Position numbers and translations under genes: made by a program. Below are positions 24,482-45,587 of a stretch of 64,000 nucleotides of DNA, piece by piece. The notes under the pieces were generated by a model that saw nothing but the letters and a program-made list of their open reading frames with translations, was not told the origin of the DNA and made no database searches. Source of the stretch: a virus; the IMG/VR virus record IMGVR_UViG_3300033978_000724, positions 33,032 through 97,031 of that record. One strand, given 5' to 3'. The number at the start of each line of letters is the position of its first letter. The stretch's first letter is position 1.

Positions 24482-24553
24482 AAAAATTCCCCTCGCTGGT
24501 TGGTACTGGAATACCGGGACCACAGGGGATGTAACCTAAATGGAGAGGTCACA
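24482..24553 (+). promoter_or_regulatory. Conserved structured leader L1
   Basis: One of four covarying copies; extended -10 TGGTAAAAT immediately upstream. Confidence 0.8.
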
Positions 24554-25183
24554 ATGAGTAATTTATCATATCAAGGAAACAGTATAACCCAAAGAGATGG
24601 CGACGGGTATGTCAACGCTACCCAAATGGCAAAAGCTAATGATGCAAGGTTTGACAACTGGATCGCAACCGAAAATGCTAAGGAATACCTGAAAGCCTTG
24701 CAGGAGTCTGATCTCCTGGAAATTCAGGAAAACAATAAAACCCTTATTGTTGTAGAGTCCAAAGGTTTTCCTGCTATTAAAACTATGTGGGTTCATCCTC
24801 TCGTTGCGATAGCCTTCGCTCAGTGGATTAGTCCAAGGTTTCATGTTTGGTGTAACCAGCATATTAAGACGTTACTAGAAACAGGTAAAACCACAACAGG
24901 CAAGTTTAAGCACAATCTTGAATGGTATGACCGCCTACTTTACTACAAAGCTAGGACAAAAATAGAAGTTGGTTATTTCTCAATCTTTGAAGAATTAAAC
25001 AATTCAATCATCAGCGAATTAGAACACTCTGGTTATACCTTGCCACTAGGTTCTGTCCCTGATATTAGCGTTGGACAATGTTTTTGTAATTACCTCAGAA
25101 GTATTGGCTATAACCTAGAGAAAATAACCAAACTTTATACTCATTATTATCCTGATGGACGGGTTATTTGCCAAGTTATCTAG
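24554..25183 (+). CDS. KilA-N protein with BstA-like C-terminal domain (C-terminus apparently truncated)
   Basis: DGYVNATQMAKA..WVHPLVAIAFAQWISPRF (KilA-N); GYFSIFEE..PDISVG..HYYPD; GAGAGG RBS supports start 24554. Confidence 0.8.
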   Translation: MSNLSYQGNSITQRDGDGYVNATQMAKANDARFDNWIATENAKEYLKALQESDLLEIQENNKTLIVVESKGFPAIKTMWVHPLVAIAFAQWISPRFHVWCNQHIKTLLETGKTTTGKFKHNLEWYDRLLYYKARTKIEVGYFSIFEELNNSIISELEHSGYTLPLGSVPDISVGQCFCNYLRSIGYNLEKITKLYTHYYPDGRVICQVI

Positions 25184-25262
25184 GGCGGTCGCAATCTTAG
25201 CATTTCAACCCGGTGGAGTAGAAATATTTGGGCAAAAGTACGAGGCGAAGCTAACAAAATAA

Positions 25263-25335
25263 TGCGTCTTACTGGAATCGAACCAGCCTTAAGGTGAATT
25301 ATGAGTTCACTGCCTCCCCAATCGGCCAAAAACGC
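25263..25335 (-). tRNA. tRNA with CAT anticodon (Ile2 or Met), CCA not encoded
   Basis: Acceptor GCGTTTT/AAGACGC, D stem GCC/GGC, anticodon arm GTGAA-CTCATAA-TTCAC, T arm GCTGG-TTCGATT-CCAGT, discriminator A; TATAAT at 25346-25351. Confidence 0.88.
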
Positions 25336-25356
25336 TAATGAGATTATTATACCTTG

Positions 25357-25824
25357 TTACGCCACATCTCTCAAATAAATCAGCAACCCATAATGAGCAA
25401 TACATAAAGCATCTGCCATGCCATCATGTTGCTTCCTACATCTTGGTAAAATCAAATTAACCTGCGGATAACGTCTGGTACAGAAATCTATCGCCGCATC
25501 TTTATCTTTAGCCGTACCACTCAATACCGATCCTTTCCACTTCTGAGGTGTTACTAATTCTAACGGTATTCCCGCTCCCATCACCGCACCTAACACCATG
25601 CCGTAACCTTTGCCAAAAGAAAAAGTAGAAGCGACTCCCTGTCCTGGCATAGAATGAACCTGCTCTGATATTACTAACTCAACTTTATGACTTCTTAATG
25701 TCTCAATCAACGCCGAAACATTAATATCTTTACCAGAAATAGGAATAGGATAAGTAAACGCCTTATTGCCATCTATAATAGCTATTCCACCCTTCAAACC
25801 TGGATCAATTCCACATATAATCAT
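25357..25824 (-). CDS. RuvC-like Holliday junction resolvase
   Basis: GIDPGLKGGIA, EQVHSMPGQGVASTFSFG, PQKWK, DGMADALCIA. Confidence 0.9.
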   Translation of the reverse strand: MIICGIDPGLKGGIAIIDGNKAFTYPIPISGKDINVSALIETLRSHKVELVISEQVHSMPGQGVASTFSFGKGYGMVLGAVMGAGIPLELVTPQKWKGSVLSGTAKDKDAAIDFCTRRYPQVNLILPRCRKQHDGMADALCIAHYGLLIYLRDVA

Positions 25825-25859
25825 AGATATATTTTAACTAATTAATTTCTATAATTATA

Positions 25860-27329
25860 ATGCAGAAATCTTCACGATCAACAAAAGAACTATTAACGCC
25901 ATTAACTACCGCATCAGCTACCAGGTTTTTAAAGAATAAAATAAAATCATCTGATACTAAAGAGAAATTATCATGGGTAGATTTTGCTAAGAAATGCCAG
26001 ATACGGTCGGGGCGTGAGTTAATACCATTCACCCCGTATGATTGGCAGGAGCAGTTTTTAGAACAAATAGAAAAACATTCTGGTATCGTTTTATGCAAAT
26101 CAAGGCAATTAGGAGCCACAGAATTTATTGGCAACTGGTTATTATGGCAGGCATCAAACGATCCTGGTTTCGTTGCAGTGGTATTCTCCAAAACTCAATC
26201 AGACTCTAGTGACATCGCCAAGCGAGTAAGAGATATGATTGTCACCTATCCTGACTTAGCATTTGAAACTAACAACCAAAAAGATTTAAAATTATTGAAT
26301 GGTGGCAGGATTATCTTTAAAGCATCAACACCTAACGCCGCCCGTGGTATTCCTTCGGTGGCAGTAGTAGTATTTGATGAATGTGCTTTTGTGGAAGGGG
26401 TAGAAACGATATACGCATCAGCACAGCCCGCTACTTCTATGTTAGGTGATAAAGCTAAGACAATATTAATGAGTACCCCAAATGGTCAACAAGGTTTCTA
26501 TTGGGAGATGTTACGAGAGGGGAACGAATCAGAAGAAATATTAAATATTTGCCGAGGCATCAGGACAGGAGAATTACCACCTGTCCTGTATTGGTCTGAC
26601 AATCATTGGTGCAAGTTTTTTGTACACTGGAAATCTCACCCGGTTTATGCCTCTGATGAGAATTACTTACAGAAAGTGAAGGACAGGCAGAAATTAACCG
26701 ACGCTCAATTACAGAGAGAATATGACCTAAACTTTGAGGAAGCAGTAAACGCACTCTATCCACAGGAATTAGTATTAAGAGGTGCTAGAGGCGTATTCCA
26801 GAACGCTATGCAAGGTAGAAAATACATAGCCGGCATTGATCCGGCATTTGGTGGTTCTGATTATTTCTGCTTGACTATTTGGGATGTTAGTTTTAATCCA
26901 TACCAATTAGTCAGGATGTACCGAGAGAATAATAAGAGTAAGGATTATAACTTAGTGAACACGGTACAGATATTAAGTCAATATCGCCCGTCTGTTGTGG
27001 GGGTGGAAAGTAATTCAGGCGGGCGGTTAATACTTGAGGATTTAATAAACAAGATGCCATGGTGCAAGATTGAGGCTGTGAACACCACTGAATCATCTAA
27101 GATTGTCGCCACGGATAGATTATTATTACTATTGGAGCGTGATCAGGTGATCTACCCGGATTGTGAGTTAAAATCTGAACTACTCAACTTTAGGGAATCA
27201 ATCAATGGTACCAGGAGAAAAAGAGAGGCAATAGCTGGTCATGATGATACTGTCATGAGTTCTGCTATTGCCTTTAGTGTGTTCTCTATTCCTTTCTTTG
27301 ATGCTGGAATAGGAACGGTTAGATACTAA
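25860..27329 (+). CDS. Terminase large subunit
   Basis: KSRQLGAT Walker A variant, VVFDE Walker B, STPNG, GIDPA, HDDTVMS nuclease motifs. Confidence 0.93.
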   Translation: MQKSSRSTKELLTPLTTASATRFLKNKIKSSDTKEKLSWVDFAKKCQIRSGRELIPFTPYDWQEQFLEQIEKHSGIVLCKSRQLGATEFIGNWLLWQASNDPGFVAVVFSKTQSDSSDIAKRVRDMIVTYPDLAFETNNQKDLKLLNGGRIIFKASTPNAARGIPSVAVVVFDECAFVEGVETIYASAQPATSMLGDKAKTILMSTPNGQQGFYWEMLREGNESEEILNICRGIRTGELPPVLYWSDNHWCKFFVHWKSHPVYASDENYLQKVKDRQKLTDAQLQREYDLNFEEAVNALYPQELVLRGARGVFQNAMQGRKYIAGIDPAFGGSDYFCLTIWDVSFNPYQLVRMYRENNKSKDYNLVNTVQILSQYRPSVVGVESNSGGRLILEDLINKMPWCKIEAVNTTESSKIVATDRLLLLLERDQVIYPDCELKSELLNFRESINGTRRKREAIAGHDDTVMSSAIAFSVFSIPFFDAGIGTVRY

Positions 27330-27383
27330 ACGAATCTCTCAGGATAGGCTCTCTTTGCTTGCTCCAAAGAGAAAAGTTTTATC

Positions 27384-27605
27384 CTATTTGGTTAAATTGA
27401 CTCCGTTTAAACCGTTCACTACCATGTTGCTTAGTTCTTTTAGCACAATACAACTAAGCTCCGCCTCTGACGAAGAGGCTATTATTTTTTTTGTCATTTC
27501 CTCGTCTTGTAAAAACTGTGAAACCATTTCCTTCTTTTCTTCAAAGGTAAGGCAATGCTCCTCACATATATTTTCGTAAGCTATTTTTAATTGCTGTCTA
27601 TCCAT
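27384..27605 (-). CDS. Hypothetical protein
   Basis: GAGGG RBS; last gene of a leftward cluster. Confidence 0.6.
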   Translation of the reverse strand: MDRQQLKIAYENICEEHCLTFEEKKEMVSQFLQDEEMTKKIIASSSEAELSCIVLKELSNMVVNGLNGVNLTK

Positions 27606-27622
27606 TTTTCCCTCTTTGTTGG

Positions 27623-27790
27623 TTATTTGGTTAACTCTTTTAGCTCCTGATGGAGCCTCTGGTTTTTCTGCCTAAGACTGGTCACGGTCTTAAACAGGGC
27701 TTCGTTTTCTTTCAGGAGTCGCCTGACTGACTCTTCTAGCTCATCTCGTGTCATTTCTGACAACGGAATAGGCGCACCTGGTTTATTCAT
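27623..27790 (-). CDS. Small coiled-coil protein, 55 aa (not in ORF track)
   Basis: MNKPGAPIPLSEMTRDELEESVRRLLKENEALFKTVTSLRQKNQRLHQELKELTK; start overlaps upstream stop and fills the gap. Confidence 0.7.
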   Translation of the reverse strand: MNKPGAPIPLSEMTRDELEESVRRLLKENEALFKTVTSLRQKNQRLHQELKELTK

Positions 27791-28004
27791 GTGGTTCTAC
27801 CACTGAAATATACTTCTCTCCTTTTACATAGCGAAACTTTAAAAACCCGTCTCTAATTGCTTCGTCTAAATCCTGGCGAATAGTACAATCTACTGACCTG
27901 GTTCCTAGTTGGGATACAATATTCACCCATGCCATCTCTTTATGGACCGACTTACTTATTAATTGTTTTATTTTCTCTAGCATTGTTTGTTGATTTTCTA
28001 TCAT
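27783..28004 (-). CDS. Hypothetical protein
   Basis: AAGGAG RBS upstream. Confidence 0.65.
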   Translation of the reverse strand: MIENQQTMLEKIKQLISKSVHKEMAWVNIVSQLGTRSVDCTIRQDLDEAIRDGFLKFRYVKGEKYISVVEPHE

Positions 28005-28052
28005 CGTTTTTCTCCTTTTATTTTTAGTTTATCGTCGTTTCGGACGGGACTA

Positions 28053-28556
28053 TTAAAATACTACTTCGGGGTCTAATAACACCTGTTGGGATAAGTCTCT
28101 GTGATGATAGATGAAGTATTGCACGTCTCTAGGTAATAAGTTGTTTTCTATTGCGTTGGTTGTCCAACCGATATTTTTCCTGAGGATGTCAATCACCCAA
28201 GATAATTGACCGGCTGTCCCCCATATCCCTAACTTTCTACAAACATCTGCTTTCTGTCTAGCAGTGCCGGCCATGAATATTTGATGGGCTAAGTTAGCCG
28301 CCCGGACTCTCTCCGGGGTAACTACGGGATTTTCAGTCTCTAGTTTCTCTATTTCTTTATTAATAGCGTTCAACAAATAACCAAACACATCAGCATAATA
28401 CTTGGCGGTTGTGGCTACCTGAGTGTTTTCTGGATTGGCTTTAGCTACGGGTTCGTTATATCTAGTCATTTCTAACAATAAACTAACAATTCTAGTTTTG
28501 TTGTTATATTTTTTTGCTACTTTTAGCTGGGCCAATAATACTTTTAAGTTTTTCAT
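28053..28556 (-). CDS. Hypothetical protein
   Basis: Start MKNLKV follows a leader shared with gene 30219-30545. Confidence 0.7.
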   Translation of the reverse strand: MKNLKVLLAQLKVAKKYNNKTRIVSLLLEMTRYNEPVAKANPENTQVATTAKYYADVFGYLLNAINKEIEKLETENPVVTPERVRAANLAHQIFMAGTARQKADVCRKLGIWGTAGQLSWVIDILRKNIGWTTNAIENNLLPRDVQYFIYHHRDLSQQVLLDPEVVF

Positions 28557-28754
28557 TTTATTTTCCTCTCCCTTAAGCCGGAGTCGCTTTTCATTTGTTT
28601 CTATATTTTTATAATACACGGTTATCTGTATTTTAACCAGATAGACCTATATAAATTATTTATACCCTTCAATGAAAATCCACTATTTCACTTATCATTT
28701 AAAACATAGATAACCGTGCTAACCTGAGAATCATATATATAAAGGATAAAAACA

Positions 28755-28985
28755 ATGGTAACTAGAAACCCCAAAGGCAGTCCCGCCACTTTGACCTCAT
28801 TCAAAGTAGAAGGACCATTAATCATCCCAGGCGACAGATTGTCTAAAAAGATGACTGCGATCCGACTCCAGCAAAAGGTAGAAGACGCTTTAAACAAAAT
28901 CCCACCCAAAGAACGGCCCGCTTTTCTCAGAAAATGTATCACCGAAGCATTAGTCACAAGTGGACTTCTTGATCTGCCTGACTAA
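28755..28985 (+). CDS. Small RHH-like DNA-binding protein
   Basis: TAIRLQQKVEDALNKIP..RPAFLRKCITEAL; AAAGGA RBS; divergent promoters share an operator-like motif. Confidence 0.65.
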   Translation: MVTRNPKGSPATLTSFKVEGPLIIPGDRLSKKMTAIRLQQKVEDALNKIPPKERPAFLRKCITEALVTSGLLDLPD

Positions 28986-29090
28986 GAATAATTACTTAAT
29001 CACCTGGACTAATTTAAAAATAATCATGGGCCGTTATGGTCCTTTTTTGTTTGCCAACCCCAAAATACCTGAGATAAATTAGTCAAAAGT

Positions 29091-29330
29091 CAATTTTCAT
29101 TCGCCTCTGTGGTGGTCTGGTGTGATTCATGCCAGGTATAGATTACACGCATGACAAAAAGTGTATTTTGCTAAAACAACTTAAAATGTAACGAAATGTA
29201 ACGCTAACGGAAAAGGTTGATCGTAGCCGTCGGTATTTGTTGCGAACGCATATCATTCACGCAGGTAGCGAATCGCTAAAAGTCTATCCTAGTATTGATT
29301 ACAGAGATGACAGAATTTGCTTTATAATAT
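29091..29330 (-). repeat. Dispersed ~240-bp non-coding element, copy B (inverted relative to A)
   Basis: Shared blocks TATTATAAAGCA, TTCTGTCATC, TTTAGCGAT, TGCGTGAATGA, TTCGCAAC, AATACCGACGGCTA, AAATACACTTTTTGTCA, GGCGAATGAAA at the same spacing. Confidence 0.9.
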
Positions 29331-29372
29331 AATAAGAACATCTGCAATGAATAAATAATCATTCCTTGGTAA

Positions 29373-29840
29373 ATGTATATCAATCTAAAAATACAAAAAG
29401 TCCACCCGCTGGCGAAGTGTCCAAAATATGCCCATGAGTTTGATGCTGGCATGGACTTGTTTTCTGTGGAAGAAAAAATATTAGGGCCGGGCGAGAGTGG
29501 ATTGATCGGGACCGGGTTAAAAATTGCTTTACCAAAATACACCGAAGCACAAATTAGACCTCGGAGCGGGTTGGCTTTAAATCATCAGATAACGGTGTTA
29601 AACAGCCCTGGGACGATTGATTCTGGTTATCGTGGGGAAATAGGCGTTATTCTGATTAATCACGGTTTAAGCCCGTTTAAAGTTGAGGTAGGGATGAAAA
29701 TAGCACAGATGGTATTGGCTTCTGTGCTAAGAGGTCGAATATTGGTTGTGAGCGAGTTGGATGATACTAGCCGGGGGAGGGTGGTTTTGGGTCTAGTGGG
29801 ATTTAGCGAAAAGAAAACCGCCAGGTTAAGGCGGCGATGA
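29373..29840 (+). CDS. dut: dUTPase (motif 5 shifted out of frame)
   Basis: AGMDL, PRSGLA, GTIDSGYRGEI, KIAQMV; RGEGGFGSSGI is recovered only with one extra G at 29773-29777. Confidence 0.92.
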   Translation: MYINLKIQKVHPLAKCPKYAHEFDAGMDLFSVEEKILGPGESGLIGTGLKIALPKYTEAQIRPRSGLALNHQITVLNSPGTIDSGYRGEIGVILINHGLSPFKVEVGMKIAQMVLASVLRGRILVVSELDDTSRGRVVLGLVGFSEKKTARLRRR

Positions 29841-29842
29841 TG

Positions 29843-30154
29843 TCAATCATGGTACATGGGGTCAAATAAGTATTTTTCTACTTCAAAAAGTATTGCATCC
29901 CTATTCTGATTAAATTCTTCGTTAGGTATTTTTCGCCATCTTTCGGCGGAGCAATTAAAGTCAGGTGGTTCCCCATCACCCACTGCATTACTTCCCCAAT
30001 AGCAGACAATATTAATTTGAGTATTCTTAGGGAATTGATTTATCTCTAATTCATAAAACGCATCAGGATTGCACTCGTTTTCTCCTGTTAGTTTTATTAC
30101 TTCAGAGGTAAACGGAATCTTTTTGCCGTCTGGCGTTGTGTAATGTTTAATCAT
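29843..30154 (-). CDS. Hypothetical protein
   Basis: ACAAAGGACAA leader places the start at 30154 (MIKHYTT). Confidence 0.65.
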   Translation of the reverse strand: MIKHYTTPDGKKIPFTSEVIKLTGENECNPDAFYELEINQFPKNTQINIVCYWGSNAVGDGEPPDFNCSAERWRKIPNEEFNQNRDAILFEVEKYLFDPMYHD

Positions 30155-30218
30155 TGTTTTTGTCCTTTGTTTATGTGTGTATTTTAAGCCTTTTATACTC
30201 ATGCTTGGGAGTTGAGAT

Positions 30219-30545
30219 TTAAAATTCTACAGCGGGGTCAAGATAAACCCCATTAAAAAACTTATCTTGATTGAAAGGCGTTTCATTTGGGATGTCTCTA
30301 ACCTGTCTAGGCTCTTTTGTATCCTTAGCACCTAAACTAGATGCCATCGAATATTTGCCGTCGGGGTAAACCATCTCATATTCATCTCTGTAACTAGGCT
30401 CAATTCTTCTTGTGATTAATTCATTTGTCGCCAAACATTTAATGGTGACGGTTTTGGCGGTCCGTTTAATAACGGAATAAGCGAATACATGATCACTTAC
30501 TATAGATAAAGAATAATAAACAGTACCAACTTCAAACTTAATCAT
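30219..30545 (-). CDS. Hypothetical phage protein
   Basis: MIKFEVG..VIKRTAKTVTI pattern; GAGG RBS. Confidence 0.7.
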   Translation of the reverse strand: MIKFEVGTVYYSLSIVSDHVFAYSVIKRTAKTVTIKCLATNELITRRIEPSYRDEYEMVYPDGKYSMASSLGAKDTKEPRQVRDIPNETPFNQDKFFNGVYLDPAVEF

Positions 30546-30597
30546 TTTATCTTTCCTCTCCCTTAAGCCGGAGTCGCTAAACTTGTTTCAATAAAAC

Positions 30598-30642
30598 CAA
30601 TATAAATCAATACTTTTGAATTGTCAATACTTATTCAAAAGA
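30598..30642 (-). promoter_or_regulatory. Sigma70-type promoter with shared 22-bp core, copy 2
   Basis: TTGACA and TATATT boxes on the minus strand; 22 bp identical to 22051-22072. Confidence 0.75.
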
Positions 30643-30763
30643 TTTTTACAAACCCACGAAAACAATAGATCATAGCCGGCTGGACCAGATACCGGCCCGG
30701 CTTGTAGCGTGTTACTATTAGTCCAACTCATGATATAATATTAAAAACAAAGGACGATATATT

Positions 30764-31072
30764 ATGAGAAAACCTAAGCAACATTCCCATAGTACAAAAT
30801 ATAGAGATTATATCCAGTCAGATAGATGGCGGGCGTTAAGAGTAAAAACATTCAGCATGACCAATAATCGGTGCGTAGGATGCGGGGATAAATGCACCGA
30901 GTGTCATCATTTAAGTTATGACAACCTAGGAAAGGAAAGGATCGGCATAGACATTGTGCCTCTTTGTTCCAAGTGTCATAAGAAATGTCACTACAAGAAA
31001 TATTGGGATAACAAGAAAAACCGGGCGATAATGTCAGACCAGCTAACAAAGAAATTTAGATTGATGTCATGA
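30764..31072 (+). CDS. HNH endonuclease
   Basis: YIQSDRW..CVGC..HHLSY..LCSKCHKKCH. Confidence 0.88.
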   Translation: MRKPKQHSHSTKYRDYIQSDRWRALRVKTFSMTNNRCVGCGDKCTECHHLSYDNLGKERIGIDIVPLCSKCHKKCHYKKYWDNKKNRAIMSDQLTKKFRLMS

Positions 31073-31675
31073 CCCCCGAACTCTTGATCCAAAATACTGC
31101 ACAGAACATTTACAATTCGCCCGGCATGAACAGGCAACGGTCGGCAAAGGTAGTTCACCAATCCGCTTTAACCCCGCCGAAGCATAACTCAAGCATTCCC
31201 CACAATTCCGATCCGTTGCCCCTAATTTCCTCATCATGTACACCAAGTCAGATTCTTTAGCGTTGGCTTGTTTCATCGTTTCACCGGCCAACCTTGACCT
31301 CTCAGTATAAAGTTTAGTCCTAGCTTTTAATTGTGCCGGCGATACCGTGCCATTTTTAATCTCTACCGCCATCTGATGTAAATATTTATATTCAGACTTT
31401 AAATCACGCCCAATACTTAACCAGTCTTCAGGGGTAGCGATATTCTTACCACCCCTAGAGATCAACGCCCGCTTTACATGGAGTGTTTTTAATTCCTTGG
31501 CAAATTCCTTTTCCCACTTCTGGAGTGAAATACGGTTAGCGATCAAATCGTCGTTGAGAATATCAATGCGATGATTAGTGGAGGAAGTAATAGTTTTCTC
31601 ACTTTTCTCGATAGTTGCTGGTGGTATAAATTTTCCATTATTCTTATATTTCCCGTATAGTTTGCTGAATTGCAT
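31067..31675 (-). CDS. Minor head/head morphogenesis protein (gp7/F-like)
   Basis: C-terminal CGEC..LPLP..CSCRANCKC; EYKYLHQMA helix. Confidence 0.65.
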   Translation of the reverse strand: MQFSKLYGKYKNNGKFIPPATIEKSEKTITSSTNHRIDILNDDLIANRISLQKWEKEFAKELKTLHVKRALISRGGKNIATPEDWLSIGRDLKSEYKYLHQMAVEIKNGTVSPAQLKARTKLYTERSRLAGETMKQANAKESDLVYMMRKLGATDRNCGECLSYASAGLKRIGELPLPTVACSCRANCKCSVQYFGSRVRGS

Positions 31676-31820
31676 TAGTGATTCCTTTTAGTTCCTTTGG
31701 TAATTCTTTTTCTAATTCTTTAGCGATGTTATTTACTTCACTTTGGGAGATAGTAGCCATTGCTAATAAGTCTGATTCGTCTAGTAAGTCATCTGTGATA
31801 ATAATAAGTTTTTCTGCCAT
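31644..31820 (-). CDS. Small hypothetical protein, 58 aa (not in ORF track)
   Basis: MAEKLIIITDDLLDESDLLAMATISQSEVNNIAKELEKELPKELKGITNAIQQTIREI; TGGTAAAAT promoter upstream. Confidence 0.6.
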   Translation of the reverse strand: MAEKLIIITDDLLDESDLLAMATISQSEVNNIAKELEKELPKELKGITNAIQQTIREI

Positions 31821-32286: not shown

Positions 32287-33063
32287 TTAGTTGAGTAATT
32301 TCAAATCAAATAAATTACCTGATAGTTGCACCTGTAATAGTTCGCTTAATATCCCTATTGCTCTGGGGTCTTTTTTCTTTAGATAGGTATAGAGATGATT
32401 AATCTTATAGGTAAACTCCATCCATTTCCTAAACTCAGCCAACAAACAATCTTGATAAATAAAAGCATCTCGAACCCCTCGCTGGTCGGGATAATGATGT
32501 TTATATTTCATCCTGAGTTTCTCGACGTGAGGGTATTTACTTTCAACATAATCAGACCATCTTTTACCAGCAGAAATATCTATTCCTGAATTATCTGGCA
32601 TGACATAACCTGCTGATTCAAAATCAGAAATCAAAGTATGACTTAATTCTCCAAAGATGGAAAAATAACCGGGCGGGATTTTAGAACGCTCTTTGAACAT
32701 CTGGTATCTATCAAACCATACTATGTTTTTTCGGCCGCCTGAGTTATATTGTCCAGTTTTACGGATAGCGGGTAATACTTCTTCAAATACCCATCGCTGA
32801 AAATCTTTAGCTATTGATTTTCGGCTGGTGAATATCAAAGCATAAAGTCCAGCTTCTGTAACTGTTACCATCTTTTGGTTTCCACCAAGGGTATAGATAC
32901 TAGCTACACCCTTTTGATAGTCGTCTAATCGTTTAATTGCGTCGCTTGCGTTTTGGATACCTAGAATATTACAAACATCTTGAGCCACCCACTCAGGCTT
33001 ATCAGGTGTCCCTACGAATCGCACATCTTGACCATCAAACCGGAATACTGATAAATTACTCAT
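32287..33063 (-). CDS. BRO-N protein with BstA-like C-terminal domain
   Basis: F-x-F-DGQDVR..PEWVAQDVC..EAGLYALIFTSRK..FQRWVFEEVLPAIRKTG (BRO-N); GYFSIFGE..DISAG..HHYPD..LAEFRKW..YL. Confidence 0.88.
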   Translation of the reverse strand: MSNLSVFRFDGQDVRFVGTPDKPEWVAQDVCNILGIQNASDAIKRLDDYQKGVASIYTLGGNQKMVTVTEAGLYALIFTSRKSIAKDFQRWVFEEVLPAIRKTGQYNSGGRKNIVWFDRYQMFKERSKIPPGYFSIFGELSHTLISDFESAGYVMPDNSGIDISAGKRWSDYVESKYPHVEKLRMKYKHHYPDQRGVRDAFIYQDCLLAEFRKWMEFTYKINHLYTYLKKKDPRAIGILSELLQVQLSGNLFDLKLLN

Positions 33064-33133
33064 GTGACCTCTCACTTAGGTTACTTCCCCTGCGGTCCCG
33101 ATGTTGATAGCATCAACCGGCGAGGGGATTTTT
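33064..33133 (-). promoter_or_regulatory. Conserved structured leader L2
   Basis: Covarying copy; TGATATAAT extended -10 upstream. Confidence 0.8.
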
Positions 33134-33472
33134 ACTACTTAATTATATCATAAAATATCGCTCTGGCGGTTTATTTTGTAGGTTCCTATGAATCTATAAA
33201 AGTATTTGTGGACCAATTGGAGACATCTTTTTTTGGTACGGGTTTAGTTTATGGTTTGGCGTGGGTTTGGTTTGGTTGGTGCTGATAGGTTTAATTGGTA
33301 CTTATAATGACAAATCATCCTTCATCAAACCAAAGGGTTGACATTTCAACGAAACACAGTATAATTATCGGTATAATCATTTTTCGTTCACATCTCGAAA
33401 AAAATGATTATATAAAAACAGGAAAGAATTTCCGTCCTTTCCTTTGCATTTAATAAAATTGTTGAGAATATT

Positions 33473-35282: not shown

Positions 35283-35750
35283 TTATTTAGACCAATCGGA
35301 ATAACTATCTATTCCCCTAAATCTCTCATCACCATCCATCAATAAGTTTAATTCCGCATAGTTTTCTAGTATCTCATTCATCCTTTCAAACGGGTTTAAA
35401 CCTTTCTTTATTTCACCGTCATTCAATAGGACAAATATATTAACATTGCACCAACGATGGAAAGCTGGACTAATCCATTGAGCTAACAAAATAGCAATCT
35501 CAGGATGTCCCCAGCTTCCCTGTAATTCTGGACGACCACCTTTTGTTATTTCGACTAATCCCGTTGCGGGAATTCCCGTATCGGCTGTCATCTCTCGGAT
35601 GTAGGCTTTAGTTTGTTTTAATCGGAGAAAATCATTTAACTTTTTACCCGTGGCATTACACATATTAGTCAGGTTAACGAATCCATCGTTACGCCGTCCC
35701 TGAATCATCTTGCCATTGTACGAAGCGGACACAATACTGCTATTATTCAT
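35283..35750 (-). CDS. KilA-N domain protein
   Basis: DGFVNLTNMC..KKLNDFLRL..QGSWGHPEIAILLAQWISPAF. Confidence 0.9.
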   Translation of the reverse strand: MNNSSIVSASYNGKMIQGRRNDGFVNLTNMCNATGKKLNDFLRLKQTKAYIREMTADTGIPATGLVEITKGGRPELQGSWGHPEIAILLAQWISPAFHRWCNVNIFVLLNDGEIKKGLNPFERMNEILENYAELNLLMDGDERFRGIDSYSDWSK

Positions 35751-35813
35751 TTAGTTGACCTCTAACTAGGTTTACTCATCCCCTGGACATTTCGAGTGTC
35801 GCAGGGATTTTTA
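35751..35813 (-). promoter_or_regulatory. Conserved structured leader L3 (short form)
   Basis: AAAAATCCCTG-C-GACA-CTCGAAA-TGTC-CAGGGGAT..ACCT-AGTTAG-AGGT; TGTTATGAT promoter. Confidence 0.75.
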
Positions 35814-38623: not shown

Positions 38624-38712
38624 AAGAAACATCCCTTTTAAACCACCTTATGCACAATTAATTATTATTATTTAAATAACACTCCAATCCCTCTCAGGAT
38701 TAGACACTTGGT

Positions 38713-39114
38713 TTAATTCAGAGTCCGATCCTCCACCAAAGTAAAGTTACCTAAAATAGTTGACCTCTCCGTGGTAGTAGTAAACTCCACGTCAAAAAAG
38801 AATACATCACCTGGGTCAAATCCAGATGTATCAGTTTTATCTATGATCGGGATGACTACCTTATAGAATTTATCAGCAGATACCTCTGTGATAACAATAC
38901 CATCCCCAACCGTGCCAGATGTTTTGGTATAAACATCAACTTTCATCCCATCAATTAATAACTTCTGCACGGTGACGGTAACGGCTAAGGTAGTGACAGC
39001 ATCCCCATAACATTCAGCTAAGATGGTGCGAGTATCAGACCTGATGATTTTTACAGGCTGTTCTGTCTCGTTAACAGGTGTTTTAGTTTCTTTCCATTTT
39101 GCATTTACTTTCAT
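38713..39114 (-). CDS. Putative virion/baseplate (BppU-N-like) protein
   Basis: I...DT......FFDVEF..TIL.GNFTLVEDRT pattern. Confidence 0.55.
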   Translation of the reverse strand: MKVNAKWKETKTPVNETEQPVKIIRSDTRTILAECYGDAVTTLAVTVTVQKLLIDGMKVDVYTKTSGTVGDGIVITEVSADKFYKVVIPIIDKTDTSGFDPGDVFFFDVEFTTTTERSTILGNFTLVEDRTLN

Positions 39115-39800
39115 TTAAAATTCATTCTCCCTACTTCAACTACATAATTCCGTGTAGTTCTGTTTCCAATGATTAACCGATAGGTCAACTCATAATATTG
39201 AGTTGTACCGACAAAGGCGGTCTCACTAGGTGTCAAGAATATTTCACCGATCCAGTTTTGCACGCCCGTCACGGGGTCAACTAATAGGGGTTTGAAGTGA
39301 AATACCTGAGAGTAATCTATCTTTTTGGAGATAACTACAGCCCCTAATAAATTAATCAATTCTAGTTTTACCGTTAATAGGTCGAGACGATAACCGTTAA
39401 TATCAAATATCAGGTTAACATTTGCTCCTTTATTAATCAGCACACCATTAGCTGATACCGATTCACCATCAGCAGACCTGAGATAAAGTAGTTTACCCGC
39501 AGGCTCCCTCTCTAATGGCAACGTAATCAAAGCGTCACACTTTGTATTGGTAAGCATTATCTCAGTCGGTTTAACCCGTGTAGCAATATTAATTACACAG
39601 TTTTTAGTATAATTCCTACTCTCACTACCACCTGTTTTCTGCATTCCCCAATCAACCCCAAAGGTGGGGCTAATCGTTTCCACACGGGATACAGTTGTTT
39701 GTAACCCCATCCGCCATCTAGTAATACCAAGATAGTCTGCTGTTATTTCAGGTGTTTCCGTAGTAGCTAAAGTCGTTGGCTGTGTATATTGTGAAGCCAT
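39111..39800 (-). CDS. Putative virion structural protein
   Basis: C-terminal LTPSET..Y.L..VVEVG pattern related to the downstream gene; in tail-fibre operon. Confidence 0.5.
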   Translation of the reverse strand: MASQYTQPTTLATTETPEITADYLGITRWRMGLQTTVSRVETISPTFGVDWGMQKTGGSESRNYTKNCVINIATRVKPTEIMLTNTKCDALITLPLEREPAGKLLYLRSADGESVSANGVLINKGANVNLIFDINGYRLDLLTVKLELINLLGAVVISKKIDYSQVFHFKPLLVDPVTGVQNWIGEIFLTPSETAFVGTTQYYELTYRLIIGNRTTRNYVVEVGRMNFK

Positions 39801-39812
39801 CTAAATCACCCC

Positions 39813-40619
39813 CTATGGATCAAGTTGATAGAGAGAACCAGACTGAATCACTAGATTAGGGTAAGAAACGCCCTCTACTATATTCAAATTAACCGCTGGT
39901 ACTAACGGACTAAACATCACGTATTGACCATCAATAAAATACTGTAAGTGAGTGATAGACCCTTGACTACCTGATACCACATCGAAACCGACATCAAGAG
40001 TTAATTCTTGTGATGCGAAAGCAGATGTATTAAAGATAGTAGAATTTCTCTCTAAGATTTTTCTACTATAATTATTCCCTACTGGTTCTGTGCCTATCGC
40101 AGTTGGAGTCGGTGCGGTTGTGGTATAGCCAATTTCAAATTGACTAGACGTAAACTCTAAAGAAACACCTCTGTAACAGTGATTCAAGATAGCATTCTTT
40201 AACCACATACTAAAGTGAGATGACACTAGGAAATCATGGTTATAACCACCGGCTAATAATACCAATTGGTCATTAAGTTTAATTAACTCCTGGTCGGTAC
40301 AATTTGCCCAGGCAAACGGACTAGGAGCTGCATTGGAAACATAAAACCCAATGGCGTAAGTTTGTCCTGTATAACCCGTTGAGATAGGGAAGGTTACATC
40401 TCTAGCCAAGAGAATTGATCCAGTAGTTGGCGGGTAAAAATAAGTTGAATCTAATTCGACTCGACTATAACCCGATCCAGTCATCTCCTGAAACGCTTGT
40501 TTAGTCCCGACGCTAACACCAATACCAACCCACGGAGTGAACCCAGCAAAGGGAATACTCTGGAATAAGTATTCCATGATCATCTGAGAACCTACATAGG
40601 TGAATGAGCCTGTTGTCAT
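39813..40619 (-). CDS. Minor tail/tail fibre protein with two internal repeats, paralog 2
   Basis: GSGYSRV..VTFPIST and NNYSRK..VGFDV repeats; aligns with 40630-41421. Confidence 0.7.
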   Translation of the reverse strand: MTTGSFTYVGSQMIMEYLFQSIPFAGFTPWVGIGVSVGTKQAFQEMTGSGYSRVELDSTYFYPPTTGSILLARDVTFPISTGYTGQTYAIGFYVSNAAPSPFAWANCTDQELIKLNDQLVLLAGGYNHDFLVSSHFSMWLKNAILNHCYRGVSLEFTSSQFEIGYTTTAPTPTAIGTEPVGNNYSRKILERNSTIFNTSAFASQELTLDVGFDVVSGSQGSITHLQYFIDGQYVMFSPLVPAVNLNIVEGVSYPNLVIQSGSLYQLDP

Positions 40620-40629
40620 GTTTTTACTC

Positions 40630-41421
40630 CTATGGGTCTAATTGGAATAGTTGACCGGCTTTTAACGCTAGTCTTTGATTTATATTGATCGGGGCAACAG
40701 TTGGCAATATATTCCACATCAGGTATTGTCCGTTGAGGAAATATATACTATGTGTTGCTGTACCCTGAACCGCTGTTGCCCAAGGAAACTCTACGATATT
40801 ATTCAACTCTTGTCCGTTGAGATTAGAGTCTTTAAAGTTAGTTGAATTACGTCCGACTAATACTCTGGCATAACCGCCCGCACCCGGTTCTGTACCAAAA
40901 CTGGCATCATTAGGCGGTGTAGTGACATAACCAAACTCAATATCAGTACCTGTTAATGCTATCGCCTCACCTCTATAAAAATGATTCAATACAGCATTTT
41001 TTAACCACATACTCCATGTGCTACCAGGTGAGAAATAATGCGTGTAAGCACCGGGTAATACTCTCAAACTATCGTAATTCTTAATCACTTCCCTCTCATT
41101 ACAATCACCCCAAGCAAAAGGCAACGGGGCAGTATTACTGGTGAAAAATCCTATCGCATAGGTTTCACCTGTAAAGCCAGTGGAAACAGGGAAAATAATC
41201 TCTTCACCTAATGTTACTTCAGCGGCGGTTGATGCTGGAAAGTAACTAGAATCTAATTGAACACGGGAATAACCAGCACCGGAAAACTCGACAAATGAGT
41301 TCTTTGATCCGTTCGCTTTTCCAATCCCTACCCAGGGAGTATCTGCTACTAATGGAATATTCTGAAATAAAAATCTCAGAATATTCAACGACCAAGGGTG
41401 CGTAAATGAGCCTATAGCCAT
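40630..41421 (-). CDS. Minor tail/tail fibre protein with two internal repeats, paralog 1
   Basis: GAGYSRV..IIFPVST and GGYARV..VEFPWAT repeats. Confidence 0.7.
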   Translation of the reverse strand: MAIGSFTHPWSLNILRFLFQNIPLVADTPWVGIGKANGSKNSFVEFSGAGYSRVQLDSSYFPASTAAEVTLGEEIIFPVSTGFTGETYAIGFFTSNTAPLPFAWGDCNEREVIKNYDSLRVLPGAYTHYFSPGSTWSMWLKNAVLNHFYRGEAIALTGTDIEFGYVTTPPNDASFGTEPGAGGYARVLVGRNSTNFKDSNLNGQELNNIVEFPWATAVQGTATHSIYFLNGQYLMWNILPTVAPININQRLALKAGQLFQLDP

Positions 41422-41568
41422 ATTGTTTAAGTTATAGTTTTACTACAGTATTATAACACGATTACATTTTGATTGTGTATATATTCTAAAGATTTTAACA
41501 ATATTTTTATATTCATTTTTTGGGATACAAAATTAGTTTAAATCGTGTCTGCGGTATCAGCAAATATT

Positions 41569-41722
41569 TATGATGGTGGTCCCGTCATTACCGTCATAAC
41601 CTAATTTACTTCACCGGCTTTACCGTCTCGACTTCACCGGCATTCTTTGTTTTATATAGGTTTTAGTGTGATGGTATTACCGGCATAGATTAACGACGGT
41701 GATGTTATGCCGGTAATGGTGT
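41569..41722. repeat. Cluster of about 11 YACCRKC(AT) motifs in both orientations
   Basis: TTACCGTCAT, TCACCGGCTT, TTACCGTCTC, TCACCGGCAT, TTACCGGCAT etc.; perfect 12-bp inverted repeat 41676-41687/41706-41717. Confidence 0.75.
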
Positions 41723-41756
41723 ATATATTCCTCAAGTCAAATCTGAGGTAATAACC

Positions 41757-42305
41757 ATGAATGAAAATGTATTCGTCCCTATTGCTGACCTGCCTGGTCG
41801 TTATAATGTATCCCGTCAAACGTTGTATGATCGAATTAAGTTTTTAAAGTTATACACCCCAAAAATGAGCGGACAAAAGCATATTTCTAGTCAGGATATT
41901 GATGTATTGGATCGGTTTCATGAACACATTATGTCGGGTAAAAATAAGAGTTCTTTTACTTTGGATAAGTCTGATTTTGATTTAGTTCCACAAGTAGTTA
42001 GTAAGCCTGTAGTAAAAGAAACTGATGTAGCCAAGATCAAAGATGTTAAACCTGTGGAGTACGTACAAGGTGATTTACTCGCACTGATTGAGAGAATTGT
42101 TGATAGGGATAAACCTATTGATTACCTTGGTAATTATCGGGCTTTAAAAGAAGCTAGTGAGAATAAATGGGTTTTATCTACTCAGAAGGTTTATGAGTTA
42201 ACCAATGTTAAACCCCATGGCGACGGGTTCTCATGGGGTTCGTTTAGGATTGTTAGGTGTGGGAAGTTGGGGCGGTCTAGTGGGTGGGTGGTCGTGAGTG
42301 GGTAA
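41757..42305 (+). CDS. HTH DNA-binding protein, cyanobacterial mobile-element type
   Basis: RYNVSRQTLYDRIKFL HTH; C-terminal WVLST..F....F.IVR.GK.GR..GW.V. Confidence 0.7.
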   Translation: MNENVFVPIADLPGRYNVSRQTLYDRIKFLKLYTPKMSGQKHISSQDIDVLDRFHEHIMSGKNKSSFTLDKSDFDLVPQVVSKPVVKETDVAKIKDVKPVEYVQGDLLALIERIVDRDKPIDYLGNYRALKEASENKWVLSTQKVYELTNVKPHGDGFSWGSFRIVRCGKLGRSSGWVVVSG

Positions 42306-42357
42306 AAGGTGTAGAGGTGTTATAATCGAGAGAGTTTAACATTATTACAAAGGACAA

Positions 42358-43197
42358 ATGCTAAAACCCAAATATTCTAAAGTACAGGCAGAAAAACTAG
42401 CCAAAAAGATTTTAAATACAAAGAAAGAACAAGAGTTTTTACCAGGGAGTGACGAACACGATCTAGTTTTATGGCTGCTAAAAGAAAGGTTCCCAAAAGA
42501 AGAGGAATTACTGCCTTATGAGATTAATGACATTGAGAACGAGAGAAAGCATCACATTCTGGGTTGGTATCACCCCAACGGTCATTTTGCTGATGACATT
42601 CAGTTAAAAATGGCGGTATCAGAAAGTGATCCATGCAAATCGTTTTGTTTTTATTTTAAAGGCGATGACGACGAGTGGCATCAGTTTTCCTACCGCAAAG
42701 CTCTGATGACTAGGTCAAAAAGAAAACCGTACTTGGTAGAAAAGGTATTTCGTTATGCGGTGTTAGATCAGACGCATGGTTTTAAACTGAAGGAAATAGA
42801 GGGGAATCCAACGTTAAAAGAGAAGAGAGAAGACGACGTTAACTCTGTTCACACAGATCACAAGGGGATTCCATTTGCTATTCTACTAGAGAGATTCCTT
42901 GAGTTAGAGAACCTAGCAAAAGAAGAGGTAGTTCTAGCACCACTACCCTTCTACTGCCAGCCTGGATACGAAATAGAAGACGACAATCTTAAGAAAAGGT
43001 GGCAACAGTACCACAAAGAGAATGCCACTCTCCAGTTATTGTCAGGAGAGGATAATATTTTGAAGTCAGCAAAAGAAGACATTCCTTTTTGTCAAAAAGA
43101 AAGGCAATTAAACGATGCTAACAAAAAACAAATATTAGCTCTGGCTTCTGTTTTGATATTCTTTATTTTGCCTTTTTATTATTTAAAATTCAGGTAA
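42358..43197 (+). CDS. DCL/DUF3223-like protein with nuclease-like C-terminal part
   Basis: FCFY......FSYRK, FRYAV..Q, HTDH..PF, W..YH...A.LQLL. Confidence 0.6.
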   Translation: MLKPKYSKVQAEKLAKKILNTKKEQEFLPGSDEHDLVLWLLKERFPKEEELLPYEINDIENERKHHILGWYHPNGHFADDIQLKMAVSESDPCKSFCFYFKGDDDEWHQFSYRKALMTRSKRKPYLVEKVFRYAVLDQTHGFKLKEIEGNPTLKEKREDDVNSVHTDHKGIPFAILLERFLELENLAKEEVVLAPLPFYCQPGYEIEDDNLKKRWQQYHKENATLQLLSGEDNILKSAKEDIPFCQKERQLNDANKKQILALASVLIFFILPFYYLKFR

Positions 43198-43233
43198 CAA
43201 AAAGGGTGCGAATATTACACGCACCCTTTTTGT
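43197..43233 (+). terminator. Intrinsic terminator
   Basis: ACAAAAAGGGTGCG..CGCACCCTTTTTGT. Confidence 0.8.
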
Positions 43234-43289
43234 CTCTACTAGTTATCACTTGACTTTTGCCGGGATTATGTTATATTAAAAAAATCTTC

Positions 43290-43521
43290 GTTCATCTCTT
43301 TTTTTTATTTGTGTATTTATTTCTTGTGGAACAAATATGATAGAGGATCGGGGCGATTTCAATACACAATAGGGTTGGTCCCCTTTTTGTGGTCTGTTAA
43401 AAATCATAGGCGGTTTGTGTTTAAGGGCTTGGTAATCCTTGATAGATCACAAACCGTTTTCAGTTTTCATAAATTAGTCTTTCCACAAAAAAAGGAACCC
43501 GATCAAGGTTCCTTTTTTGTG
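43290..43521 (+). ncRNA. Candidate ~230-nt small RNA
   Basis: TTGACT..TGTTATATT promoter (43250-43277), internal stems, terminator 43484-43521, no credible ORF. Confidence 0.5.
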
Positions 43522-43590
43522 CTTACCAGGGCAAAAGAGATAATTTTAAAACCCAGATAGAGGGTTATAGGACAATCAGGTCAAACAAGG

Positions 43591-44697
43591 TTAGTTGGCT
43601 CTCACCACTTTTTGTATTGTCTTTTTTCCCATTGACCTCTTCTGGCATTTTTTCTGGCTTACAGGCATCTGTGTTTCTTGTATATCTATCTCTTCAGTTG
43701 ACTGACGAGATTCTTTTTCAAGTATCTTATTGGAGTTGGTAACACGATCAAATAAGGCGACAGGAAATTGCTCTCGTGAATACCCAGAACTTCTTCTTAA
43801 CAAGTCCTTTGATGATTTTCCATTCAAAAAATCACTTAATAATTTTTCTGTCTTTTTGTATTTTCTCAGGAGGTCCTCTTCCGATTCTCCTCTCCCCTCA
43901 CCAATGAAAAACTCCCTCAATGCGACCATCTGAGATGCTCCTTTTGGTGGTTTCTCGTCATCCCTTGTCCCGTTTAGAAATATCTCTAATGCTATTTCTA
44001 AGTCTTTGTGATTAGACCCCGAAGCATAAGCCCTAGCCCATACAGACAAAGGAATGGCTGACCGAGTAGGACAAAGAGAACTTCCTTTTCCTTTGCTCCA
44101 TCCAAAAGATAGAGCCTTGTCGTGTACCCAGTCTATACATTCCTTGTTCTGTAGGTAAAATTTTTCGACTTCTTTCAATGAAGCATGGTTTTTTAAAGAA
44201 GTATAAGAGAATGGACAGCAGGCTTTTTTTTGATGTGTTTCTTTTAGAAACGTCAACTTCTGCCCTAACAAGCAGTATTTAAGTATTGTCACCTTTTCCT
44301 TCTCGTAACCAAGGATAGTAAAACCATCGTTTGTACTTCTTTTTTTTCCTCTATCAATAACATACCGAGATTCTGGTGCCACGTTAAGGAGAAACAACAT
44401 CTTCACTCCAGCGTGCTTAACATTTGCCGCCGCCTGCAACCTATGCTGTCCATTGACAAGCCATCCATCTTTGTCAATAATAAGAGGCTCTACACACAAA
44501 AATTCTCCAGACTCTATCGCCTTTTCTAGTCTTCTGAGATTGTCACTGCTGATATTTCGGTTTTCAGGCATATTAATTGCCAATAACGCACCTGCATCGG
44601 AATTGGTTAAGACTTTTTCTGCAAGCCTCTCAGTGTATCCTTTCCCTATCTCTGAGTAACCAAAGAAATCTTTTAAAAAAGCAATGTTTTCGTTCAT
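43591..44697 (-). CDS. ParB/Srx-like (DGQHR-type) domain protein
   Basis: NRNIS..PLIIDKDGWLVNGQHRLQAA..IDRGKKRS. Confidence 0.75.
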   Translation of the reverse strand: MNENIAFLKDFFGYSEIGKGYTERLAEKVLTNSDAGALLAINMPENRNISSDNLRRLEKAIESGEFLCVEPLIIDKDGWLVNGQHRLQAAANVKHAGVKMLFLLNVAPESRYVIDRGKKRSTNDGFTILGYEKEKVTILKYCLLGQKLTFLKETHQKKACCPFSYTSLKNHASLKEVEKFYLQNKECIDWVHDKALSFGWSKGKGSSLCPTRSAIPLSVWARAYASGSNHKDLEIALEIFLNGTRDDEKPPKGASQMVALREFFIGEGRGESEEDLLRKYKKTEKLLSDFLNGKSSKDLLRRSSGYSREQFPVALFDRVTNSNKILEKESRQSTEEIDIQETQMPVSQKKCQKRSMGKKTIQKVVRAN

Positions 44698-44728
44698 TTT
44701 TTCGGTTTATAACTCTTGACCTTTTTAT

Positions 44729-44812
44729 CAAACGGAAGTACGATCAAGAGTGAATGTAGTATAAATATACTTCCGTTTGTAGCCAAATGTACTATCAATA
44801 CATTTGGCTATG
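44729..44812 (-). promoter_or_regulatory. Two perfect 12-bp hairpins directly after a TTGATT-17-TATACT promoter
   Basis: TAGCCAAATGTA-TTGATAG-TACATTTGGCTA and CAAACGGAAGTA-N27-TACTTCCGTTTG. Confidence 0.7.
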
Positions 44813-44872
44813 TTTTCAGTATAAGACATTGAAGAGACAAAATCAACCCAAAACAGGATAGCTTATTTTTCT

Positions 44873-45517
44873 TTAAATTAAGAACCTCAAAGCCTCTTTA
44901 TGGGTATGACCAGCTTTTCTCATGGCGTTGTATATCGCTTCGGATCGATTCATTTTGCTTATTTCATCCGCTGAATATTCATTAATGCTGATGATTGGTA
45001 ATCCACTTGACTCTTTGAACTCATTAATTTTTCTGCCATATTCCCAATCCTTAGAACAACCATCTTGCTGTAACCAGAAAGTTAATAATGGGTGAAAACG
45101 CTCTCTATGTATTTGACGTTCTCTTAAAAAGTTTTGCCGGTCTTCTTCCGTGAATTTAACGTGAAAAGCGTCACAAAATAATTGATGCCATCCTAAATCA
45201 TTTAAGTCACGAACTAAGTCCATTGCTTTTTGGTTGCCAGAAAAAGCTAACTCAACTATCAATCGGGACCAACTTTCTAACGGAATAATATTGACAGCTT
45301 TTTGATTAAAAGGGGTTTTCCATTGTTCAAACTCAATGGATGTCTGAGAAACCTTTGCTAGTAGTCGCTTGAGGTCTCTTGACGCTGTATTCCTGGATGT
45401 CTCGAAAATATCTGCGTACTGGGGAACTGCCACACCAAAACGACAACCTTCGGCCATCAATCCTTCTATCGTGTGCGTCCCGACTTTAACCGTAGCAATT
45501 TGTGCTTTAATACTCAT
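44873..45517 (-). CDS. Phage regulatory protein, KilA-N/P63C-associated-like N-terminal domain
   Basis: KAQIATVKVG..IEGLM..ASRDLKRLL..GNQKA..LFCDAF; GAGGA RBS in leader L4. Confidence 0.6.
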   Translation of the reverse strand: MSIKAQIATVKVGTHTIEGLMAEGCRFGVAVPQYADIFETSRNTASRDLKRLLAKVSQTSIEFEQWKTPFNQKAVNIIPLESWSRLIVELAFSGNQKAMDLVRDLNDLGWHQLFCDAFHVKFTEEDRQNFLRERQIHRERFHPLLTFWLQQDGCSKDWEYGRKINEFKESSGLPIISINEYSADEISKMNRSEAIYNAMRKAGHTHKEALRFLI

Positions 45518-45587
45518 GTGTCCTCTTACTTAGGATACTCCCCTTAAGGCCCCGGTATTTCCAGTACCAACCTGTGAAGGGGTTTTT
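45518..45587 (-). promoter_or_regulatory. Conserved structured leader L4
   Basis: Covarying copy; TGTTATAAT extended -10 upstream. Confidence 0.8.

Follow-up and report, generated by a model that had tools for sequence, protein, structure and literature searches.

In phages P1 and P7, the c4 antisense RNA controls an antirepressor operon by way of its loop sequences, which determine the specificity of immunity; c4 shares its coding strand with the target, and its sites of action lie upstream. The sar RNA of Salmonella phage P22 is about 69 nucleotides (nt) long and overlaps the ribosome site of the ant gene. As a cis-encoded antisense RNA of the immI region, sar curbs the antirepressor gene ant and inhibits anti-repression (PMC5415839). 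In Escherichia coli, the SymR promoter is embedded in the early part of the symE reading frame, and SymR represses translation (PMC1891008). Here we describe a structured RNA element that occurs four times at gene starts in a 64,000-nt stretch of virus DNA (IMG/VR record IMGVR_UViG_3300033978_000724, positions 33,032 to 97,031), which we call the window and which we assign below to a phage of filamentous cyanobacteria. Judging from its strand signals, the element is most likely a cis-antisense guard of antirepressor and BstA-type genes, that is, a known kind of control in a new and unusually portable family. In the literature, we found no paper that links KilA-N, antisense RNA and cyanobacteria.

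The four copies were located from the sequence as follows (window coordinates throughout):

24479-24559, plus strand: copy L1
33137-33058, minus strand: copy L2
35816-35745, minus strand: copy L3
45591-45512, minus strand: copy L4

An earlier note on this DNA had claimed four such leaders with their stems, loops and extended -10 boxes, and all of these were found in place. A loose pattern for the element gave 4 matches, compared with 0.01 expected from shuffles. The outer stem is CCCCT/AGGGG in L1 and L2, CCCCTT/AAGGGG in L4 and CCCTG/CAGGG in L3. The middle stem, which L3 lacks, is TGGTT/GACCA, CGGTT/GACCG or AGGTT/GGCCT, and the inner stem is GGTA/TACC, GATG/CATC or GACA/TGTC. The stem at the ribosome-binding site is ACCT/AGGT or TCCT/AGGA, and the apical loops fit CT-NNN-AA. 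When a covariance model was built from L1, L2 and L4, it recovered L3 (E 1e-4) and no further site across the 97-kb genome.

Homologues were gathered by pattern scans of genome, metagenome and viral collections followed by a model filter, and the rebuilt covariance model (R2) was run on genomes. We collected 32 distinct members, among which the stem sequences diverge strongly; they come from cyanobacterial genomes, metagenomes and other viral contigs, and the element is widespread in cyanobacteria and their viruses. The element was present in 8 of 151 genomes of one cyanobacterial order and in 10 of 39 genomes of one family, some of which had 4 to 5 copies, and a class-wide sample of 149 further cyanobacterial genomes gave no new matches. 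Three more viral contigs carried it, including a complete 188-kb virus (G331) with three copies. A first loose pattern run on viral contigs had returned more than 112 single matches, which were deemed to be mostly chance and were not used.

Across the 32 members, pairing was kept in 96% of cells and two-sided changes were found in 21 of 22 pairs, a level that none of 500 shuffles reached, while slid controls gave 36 to 46% pairing. Since the 32-member alignment had been fitted to a covariance model, we repeated the analysis with MAFFT and RNAalifold, which were not so fitted, and obtained the same fold with compensatory changes in 16 of 21 pairs. The whole window had no match in Rfam 15, which is assumed to hold the c4 family, at gathering thresholds; at E values up to 1, there was no match in ten element loci, and only tRNAs and chance matches appeared elsewhere. 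The element is real, conserved and structured, lies outside Rfam, and extends beyond the four phage copies. On these points, namely a portable module with true covariation that is absent from Rfam, the earlier note was borne out. Readings of the element as an integron attC-like site or a ribozyme were dropped, as the core sequences were unconserved and Rfam gave no match.

The conserved fold is made of two hairpins. Hairpin 1 has a 6-base pair (bp) outer stem, then a C-G-C segment in which both C are bulged and the G is paired, and above it a middle stem, a 4-bp inner stem and a loop of 6 to 7 nt, mostly CUnnnAA. The two bulged C are on the 5' side of hairpin 1, and a 2-nt purine bulge is on its 3' side. 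Hairpin 2, GUAACCU...AGGUCAC, is weak, and its 3' arm is part of the Shine-Dalgarno sequence.

On the sense strand, TGnTAnnnT or TAnnnT lies 6 to 21 nt ahead of hairpin 1 in nearly all members, within unrelated upstream sequences, and the Shine-Dalgarno sequence, the start codon and the open reading frame (ORF) come next. The sense-strand signals of the four copies are:

24465..24473, plus strand: L1 extended -10 box TGGTAAAAT, seen in the sequence, 14 nt ahead of the hairpin base
24488..24552, plus strand: L1 leader, with a bulged three-part hairpin 1 (24488-24529) and hairpin 2 with the Shine-Dalgarno sequence (24531-24552); from the fold, a covariance model match of 94.8 bits and covariation
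33142..33150, minus strand: L2 extended -10 box TGATATAAT, seen in the sequence
33064..33128, minus strand: L2 leader, with hairpin 1 (33128-33086) and hairpin 2 with the Shine-Dalgarno sequence (33084-33064); from the fold and a match of 105 bits
35822..35830, minus strand: L3 extended -10 box TGTTATGAT, seen in the sequence
35753..35806, minus strand: L3 leader, a short form without the middle stem, with hairpin 1 (35806-35781) and hairpin 2 (35776-35753); from the fold and a model R2 match of 47.6 bits
45597..45605, minus strand: L4 extended -10 box TGTTATAAT, directly past the terminator of the upstream gene (45639-45611)
45518..45582, minus strand: L4 leader, with hairpin 1 (45582-45540) and hairpin 2 (45538-45518); from the fold and a match of 101.5 bits

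A small GC hairpin was also seen just 5' of the sense -10 box in L1 (24451-24464), L2 (33157-33170) and L4 (45611-45639); the one at L4 is the upstream gene's terminator, and the one at L2 reads as a second terminator of the antisense strand.

The opposite strand carries a facing set of signals. Among the 26 members with an adjacent ORF, 16 had an opposing TGnTAnnnT within codons 2-5, at 3 to 12 nt from the start codon. As a control, the order of codons 2-15 was shuffled in 2000 trials, which yielded 0.55 +/- 0.74 antisense TGnTAnnnT motifs with a maximum of 6. The shorter TAnnnT was found on the antisense strand at 3 to 7 nt in 22 of 26 members (4.4 expected), and TGnTAnnnT had 0 occurrences on the sense strand of the same codons. 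Only 1 of 115 other phage ORFs contained the opposing motif, for which the genome density was 0.0016 per site. The motif is kept by nine different N-terminal sequences, and when closely related pairs were compared, the difference fell at the free position of the motif, as in TGCTAAAAT versus TGTTAAAAT, a change from Ser to Asn. At the other end of the element, 23 of the 32 members have a run of four or more A before hairpin 1 on the sense strand, so that hairpin 1 on the antisense strand is directly followed by U4 or more. An opposing promoter at the start of the target gene is thus present as a motif, and an intrinsic terminator past the ribosome site is present as sequence, with a GC-based hairpin and U4 or more. 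The antisense-strand features of the four copies are:

24560..24568, minus strand: L1 extended -10 box TGATAAATT, a motif in codons 3-5
24482..24553, minus strand: L1 predicted cis-antisense RNA of about 72 nt with a U5 end; fold -27.8 kcal/mol, z -3.8
33028..33057, plus strand: L2 promoter, with TTGACC as the -35 hexamer, an 18-nt spacer and TGATAAATT, from a promoter scan; TG precedes the -10
33064..33133, plus strand: L2 predicted cis-antisense RNA of about 70 nt with a U5 end; fold -27.6 kcal/mol, z -3.4
35738..35746, plus strand: L3 extended -10 box TGCTATTAT, a motif in codons 2-5
35753..35812, plus strand: L3 predicted cis-antisense RNA of about 60 nt; antisense fold z -3.1
45503..45511, plus strand: L4 near-match TGCTTTAAT to an extended -10 box, the hexamer lacking the A at position 2; seen in the sequence and left out of the antisense -10 count
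45518..45587, plus strand: L4 predicted cis-antisense RNA of about 70 nt, the weakest of the four; antisense fold z -1.6

The ends given for these RNAs are predictions in all copies, those of L1 being derived from the promoter motif and the U-run. Some features of the fold favor the antisense strand. Hairpin 2 is continuous only there, through a G-U pair kept in 21 of 22 cases, and the sense strand has at this place an invariant A-C mismatch flanked by covarying pairs. The consensus folded at -23.1 kcal/mol in the antisense orientation versus -19.5 kcal/mol in the sense orientation, and the sense z values of L1 to L4 were -1.2, -1.5, -2.7 and -0.5. The opposing -10 box, the U-run and the hairpin 2 G-U pair agree with the suggestion in the earlier note that both strands may matter, which was its most fruitful remark.

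The reading that we favor, at slightly better than even chances, is that convergent promoters would produce a structured 5' leader and a 60- to 72-nt cis-antisense RNA over the ribosome site and start codon. Each copy would be a self-contained two-way regulatory cassette. On the gene strand, a host-type extended -10 promoter would start the mRNA, the first 70 nt or so of which would fold as two hairpins. On the opposite strand, the extended -10 promoter in codons 2-5 would fire back over the start codon and the ribosome site, and its transcript would terminate at the mirror image of hairpin 1 with the U-run, matching the 5' end of the mRNA. The antisense RNA, running from about the start codon, would be fully complementary to the leader, and the duplex would extend over the ribosome site and the AUG and would block translation, trigger cleavage, or both. 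The facing promoters, about 70 to 85 bp apart, should also interfere with each other through head-on transcription. The DNA-binding antirepressor or BstA-type gene would be off unless the sense promoter fires strongly. Antisense RNAs and targets that first make contact loop to loop, such as CopA/CopT and hok/sok, typically have bulged stem-loops with loops of 6 to 7 nt. From the fold, the two promoter motifs, the U-run and the gene association seen in these sequences, we infer that either RNA would be made, that the two would pair, and that their pairing would affect expression. That translation would be kept off was also proposed in the earlier note, which had pointed to the loop-targeting antisense RNAs of P1/P7 and P22. 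Here the repressing RNA is probably not a separate one that acts in trans on the loop; it is most likely encoded by the element itself, through the conserved opposing promoter in codons 2-5, and would end at hairpin 1 and the U-run.

Of the described systems, sar/ant has the same class of target gene and is a functional parallel. A blastn search with the leader against 50,697 phage records gave nothing relevant, and no sequence likeness to sar/ant was found. Unlike sar/ant, the element described here is a conserved structural family that precedes at least seven gene families and has several copies per genome. The layout of SymR/symE, a system like type I toxin-antitoxin systems, matches the one proposed here. 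However, symE is a chromosomal, SOS-induced, single-copy gene of an AbrB-like family and is not portable, and there is no homology between the two.

The genes that follow the four copies are:

24554..25183, plus strand: gene 1, 209 amino acids (aa), KilA-N and a BstA-type C-terminal domain (Pfam KilA-N, E 1.7e-22; phrog_6287 BstA; PADLOC BstA)
32287..33063, minus strand: gene 2, 258 aa, Bro-N and a BstA-type C-terminal domain (Pfam Bro-N, E 6e-20; PADLOC BstA, E 6e-21)
35283..35750, minus strand: gene 3, 155 aa, KilA-N domain only (Pfam KilA-N, E 1.7e-21)
44873..45517, minus strand: gene 4, 214 aa, no recognized family (no match in Pfam, PHROG or PADLOC)

The earlier note had called all four genes KilA-N/BRO-N-type, which Pfam confirmed for three of them; the 214-aa gene 4 has no family. 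By their domain content, genes 1 and 2 are predicted to be of the type of the BstA abortive-infection proteins. Gene 1 covers profile positions 21-234 of 304 in phrog_6287 and fits the layout of KilA-N plus BstA C-terminal domain, and gene 2 departs from it in that Bro-N replaces KilA-N. The two proteins are 31% identical over 176 aa, a stretch that takes in some of the N-terminal half as well as the BstA-type C-terminal domain. The nearest neighbors of gene 4 in a protein language model are BstA_C clusters, which is a lead only, and BLASTP found no similarity between gene 4 and gene 2. Across all members, the families after the element are KilA-N, Bro-N, AntA with BstA-C, Rha, T5orf172/MUG113, a small HTH protein and a DUF3987 helicase-like protein. 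All of these domains except DUF3987 are commonly annotated as phage antirepressors or BRO-type regulators, and the domain matches downstream of the element agree with the placement before antirepressor-type genes that had been claimed.

We took 24554 as the start of gene 1 because it has a Shine-Dalgarno sequence and agrees with the other copies. An in-frame ATG at 24464 lengthens the ORF to 239 aa across the entire leader (24464-24553), and therefore automatic gene callers may hide the L1 leader. A tRNA-Met gene lies at 25263-25335 on the minus strand, 80 bp past the end of gene 1 and opposite to it.

Several findings weigh against a cis-antisense role. The U-run is weak in 9 of the 32 members, 10 of the 26 members with an ORF lack the TG extension, and the antisense -10 of L4 is only a near-match (TTTAAT). 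The G-U pairs of hairpin 1 favor the sense strand (15 cells versus 6 A-C), and the antisense hairpin would therefore be looser in its upper part; this bias, and the opposite one in hairpin 2, had been seen correctly in the earlier note. The conservation of the first codons could come partly from shared descent of a recombining cassette and not from selection for a promoter. In cyanobacterial genomes, five members (L171, L172, L175, L180 and L181) have no adjacent ORF or only a decayed remnant of 6 to 9 codons. L173 (1501-1578) has T6 after its hairpin 2 (ACCTG/CAGGT) on the sense strand. Members without an ORF or with a sense terminator (L171, L172, L175 and L173) do not fit a simple gene-guard role. 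The ORF-less members may be relics or free-standing small RNA genes. All five were seen in similar flanks across several genomes, and L173 can be read as a small sense RNA, about 75 nt long, that brings along a terminator.

The G-U bias of hairpin 1 and the T6 of L173 are in line with an explanation that we consider unlikely, in which the element would be a cis-regulatory leader of the sense RNA only. Hairpin 1, at the 5' terminus, would then serve for stability or protein binding and hairpin 2 would act as a brake on translation, with no antisense RNA and with the opposing -10 words as a by-product. A strong, near-consensus sense promoter at a fixed distance, and conserved bulges and a CUnnnAA loop that resemble a recognition site, also speak for such a leader. 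However, it leaves unexplained why extended -10 boxes oppose the gene in 16 of 26 members against 0.55 expected, why an A-run precedes the hairpin in 23 of 32, and why hairpin 2 has an invariant A-C mismatch that is a G-U pair only on the other strand; moreover, the sense folds of the four copies barely beat shuffles (z -0.5 to -2.7). A role at the DNA level, either as a self-immunity site for BstA-type proteins or as a palindromic operator of the encoded proteins, with the covariation reflecting symmetric half-sites, is in our judgment very improbable. The model for it is the aba element of prophage BTP1, which covers 29 bp ahead of bstA and 34 bp of its coding sequence, works as DNA and shows specificity for the cognate protein (PMC8585504). 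Like aba, the element is short, is conserved, and straddles the 5' end of a BstA-type gene, here of genes 1 and 2 among the four, both of which have the BstA C-terminal domain; in addition, the four copies differ most in their center. Whereas aba has terminal direct repeats, CCCGCC, with no hairpin reported, the element here is a covarying inverted repeat that ends in CCCCT/AGGGG and variants. It also precedes gene 3 and many other genes that are not BstA, including a T5orf172 gene of 117 aa, Rha, HTH and DUF3987 genes and KilA-N alone. One-sided bulges, G-U pairs, a Shine-Dalgarno sequence, a U-run and two promoters are features of RNA type.

Equally hard to credit on its own is a mobile promoter/terminator cassette in which the element would provide homology for the swapping of accessory genes and the hairpin would be only an insulating terminator. 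PeSLs are cassettes of T4-type phages that combine a terminator with an early promoter, border variable accessory genes, and are linked to gene shuffling (PMC2839356; PMC4122927). In being composite regulatory units that recur next to variable genes, they partly resemble the element, which is also multi-copy (4 copies here, 3 in the 188-kb virus and 4 to 5 in some cyanobacterial genomes) and stands ahead of seven unrelated gene families. L1 and L2 moreover share their leader, and the genes behind them agree in the first five codons and in the C-terminal domain but have different N-terminal domains. The promoter of a PeSL is present, but the stem-loop faces the opposite way, and an upstream terminator before the promoter exists only at L3 and L4. 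In the description of PeSLs consulted (PMC4122927), there is neither a structured ribosome-site leader nor an opposing promoter, and PeSLs belong to another phage group and host. A plain terminator needs no conserved bulges, loop, ribosome-site hairpin or opposing promoter. A mobile-cassette role is compatible with the cis-antisense reading and goes together with it rather than replacing it.

The variable part of the element is the upper stem-loop, and the earlier note likened the variable center of its loop to an address code, an analogy to c4. Its identity in L2-L4 is 0.61 versus 0.79 in the rest of the element, and copies in the same genome often differ most there; the upper stem-loops of L1 and L4 are nearly identical (0.82). 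It is conceivable, though doubtful, that the cis-antisense element is used as a portable, programmable RNA lock, in which a variable upper stem-loop on a constant frame would restrict each antisense RNA to the mRNA of its own copy. Several toxic DNA-binding or defense genes in a single phage or cell could then be gated independently, and hairpins acting in trans could link the copies as a small network. The constant frame would consist of the pair of opposed promoters, the outer stem, the hairpin at the ribosome site and the terminator, and recombination would have placed this frame before at least seven gene families, in cyanobacteria as well as in their viruses.

A perfect 12-bp hairpin with the 7-nt loop UUGAUAG was noticed at 44780-44810 on the minus strand, between gene 4 and the next gene. 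Its loop is perfectly complementary to that of the L2 leader and has the same sequence as the loop predicted for the L2 antisense RNA. TTGATT-17-TATACT lies ahead of it and a second long hairpin after it, and the fold of the region has a z of -5.3. The genome contains 15 perfect hairpins with a stem of at least 9 bp, this one included, and five have a 7-nt loop; the chance of the loop match with L2, estimated after the fact, is about 0.005. In G331, no perfect hairpin matches any of the three leader loops, and the idea of a trans hairpin is therefore not general. We also considered that the L2 loop might form a pseudoknot with a complementary 7-nt stretch about 25 nt into the coding sequence, and rejected this because L1 has no equivalent.

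Few accessory genes of phages and defense islands are as common, or as poorly understood, as those of the KilA-N, Bro-N, Ant, Rha and BstA types. Several of them are toxic or infection-aborting, and little is known of how they are silenced and released. The family defined here, a covarying RNA outside Rfam in cyanobacterial genomes and several cyanophages, comes with a concrete mechanism that can be tested cheaply. Retention of the regulatory cassette while the regulated gene is swapped bears on the shuffling of phage accessory genes, and such elements may possibly serve as compact, perhaps orthogonal, off-switches for cyanobacterial engineering.

The three copies in G331 (188,399 bp, direct terminal repeats) are:

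84066-84147: first copy
103434-103517: second copy
181100-181182: third copy

G331 is a large virus unrelated to the phage described here, and it has many long perfect hairpins with AAATT/AATTT loops and stems of up to 26 bp.

The source record of the window is a 97,031-bp virus genome with direct terminal repeats, of which the window comprises bases 33032-97031. Model R1 gave no match in five cultured relatives (Cr-LKS4, RM-2018a and three Nodularia phages), an empty answer that carries little weight. The phage's major capsid protein was not found in five element-carrying host genomes with this query, and the host copies are therefore, as far as this query goes, not in prophages of this phage type. 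The window encodes a major head protein, a portal, a large terminase, a ribonucleotide reductase, a ParB-like protein and methyltransferases. The terminase shares 36% identity with its counterparts in Cylindrospermopsis phages Cr-LKS4 and RM-2018a and 34% with those in Nodularia siphophages; given this likeness and the virus record, the home of the element is a phage of filamentous cyanobacteria and not a cyanobacterial chromosome. The virion module also includes a single ORF of 3813 aa (4851-16292, plus strand).

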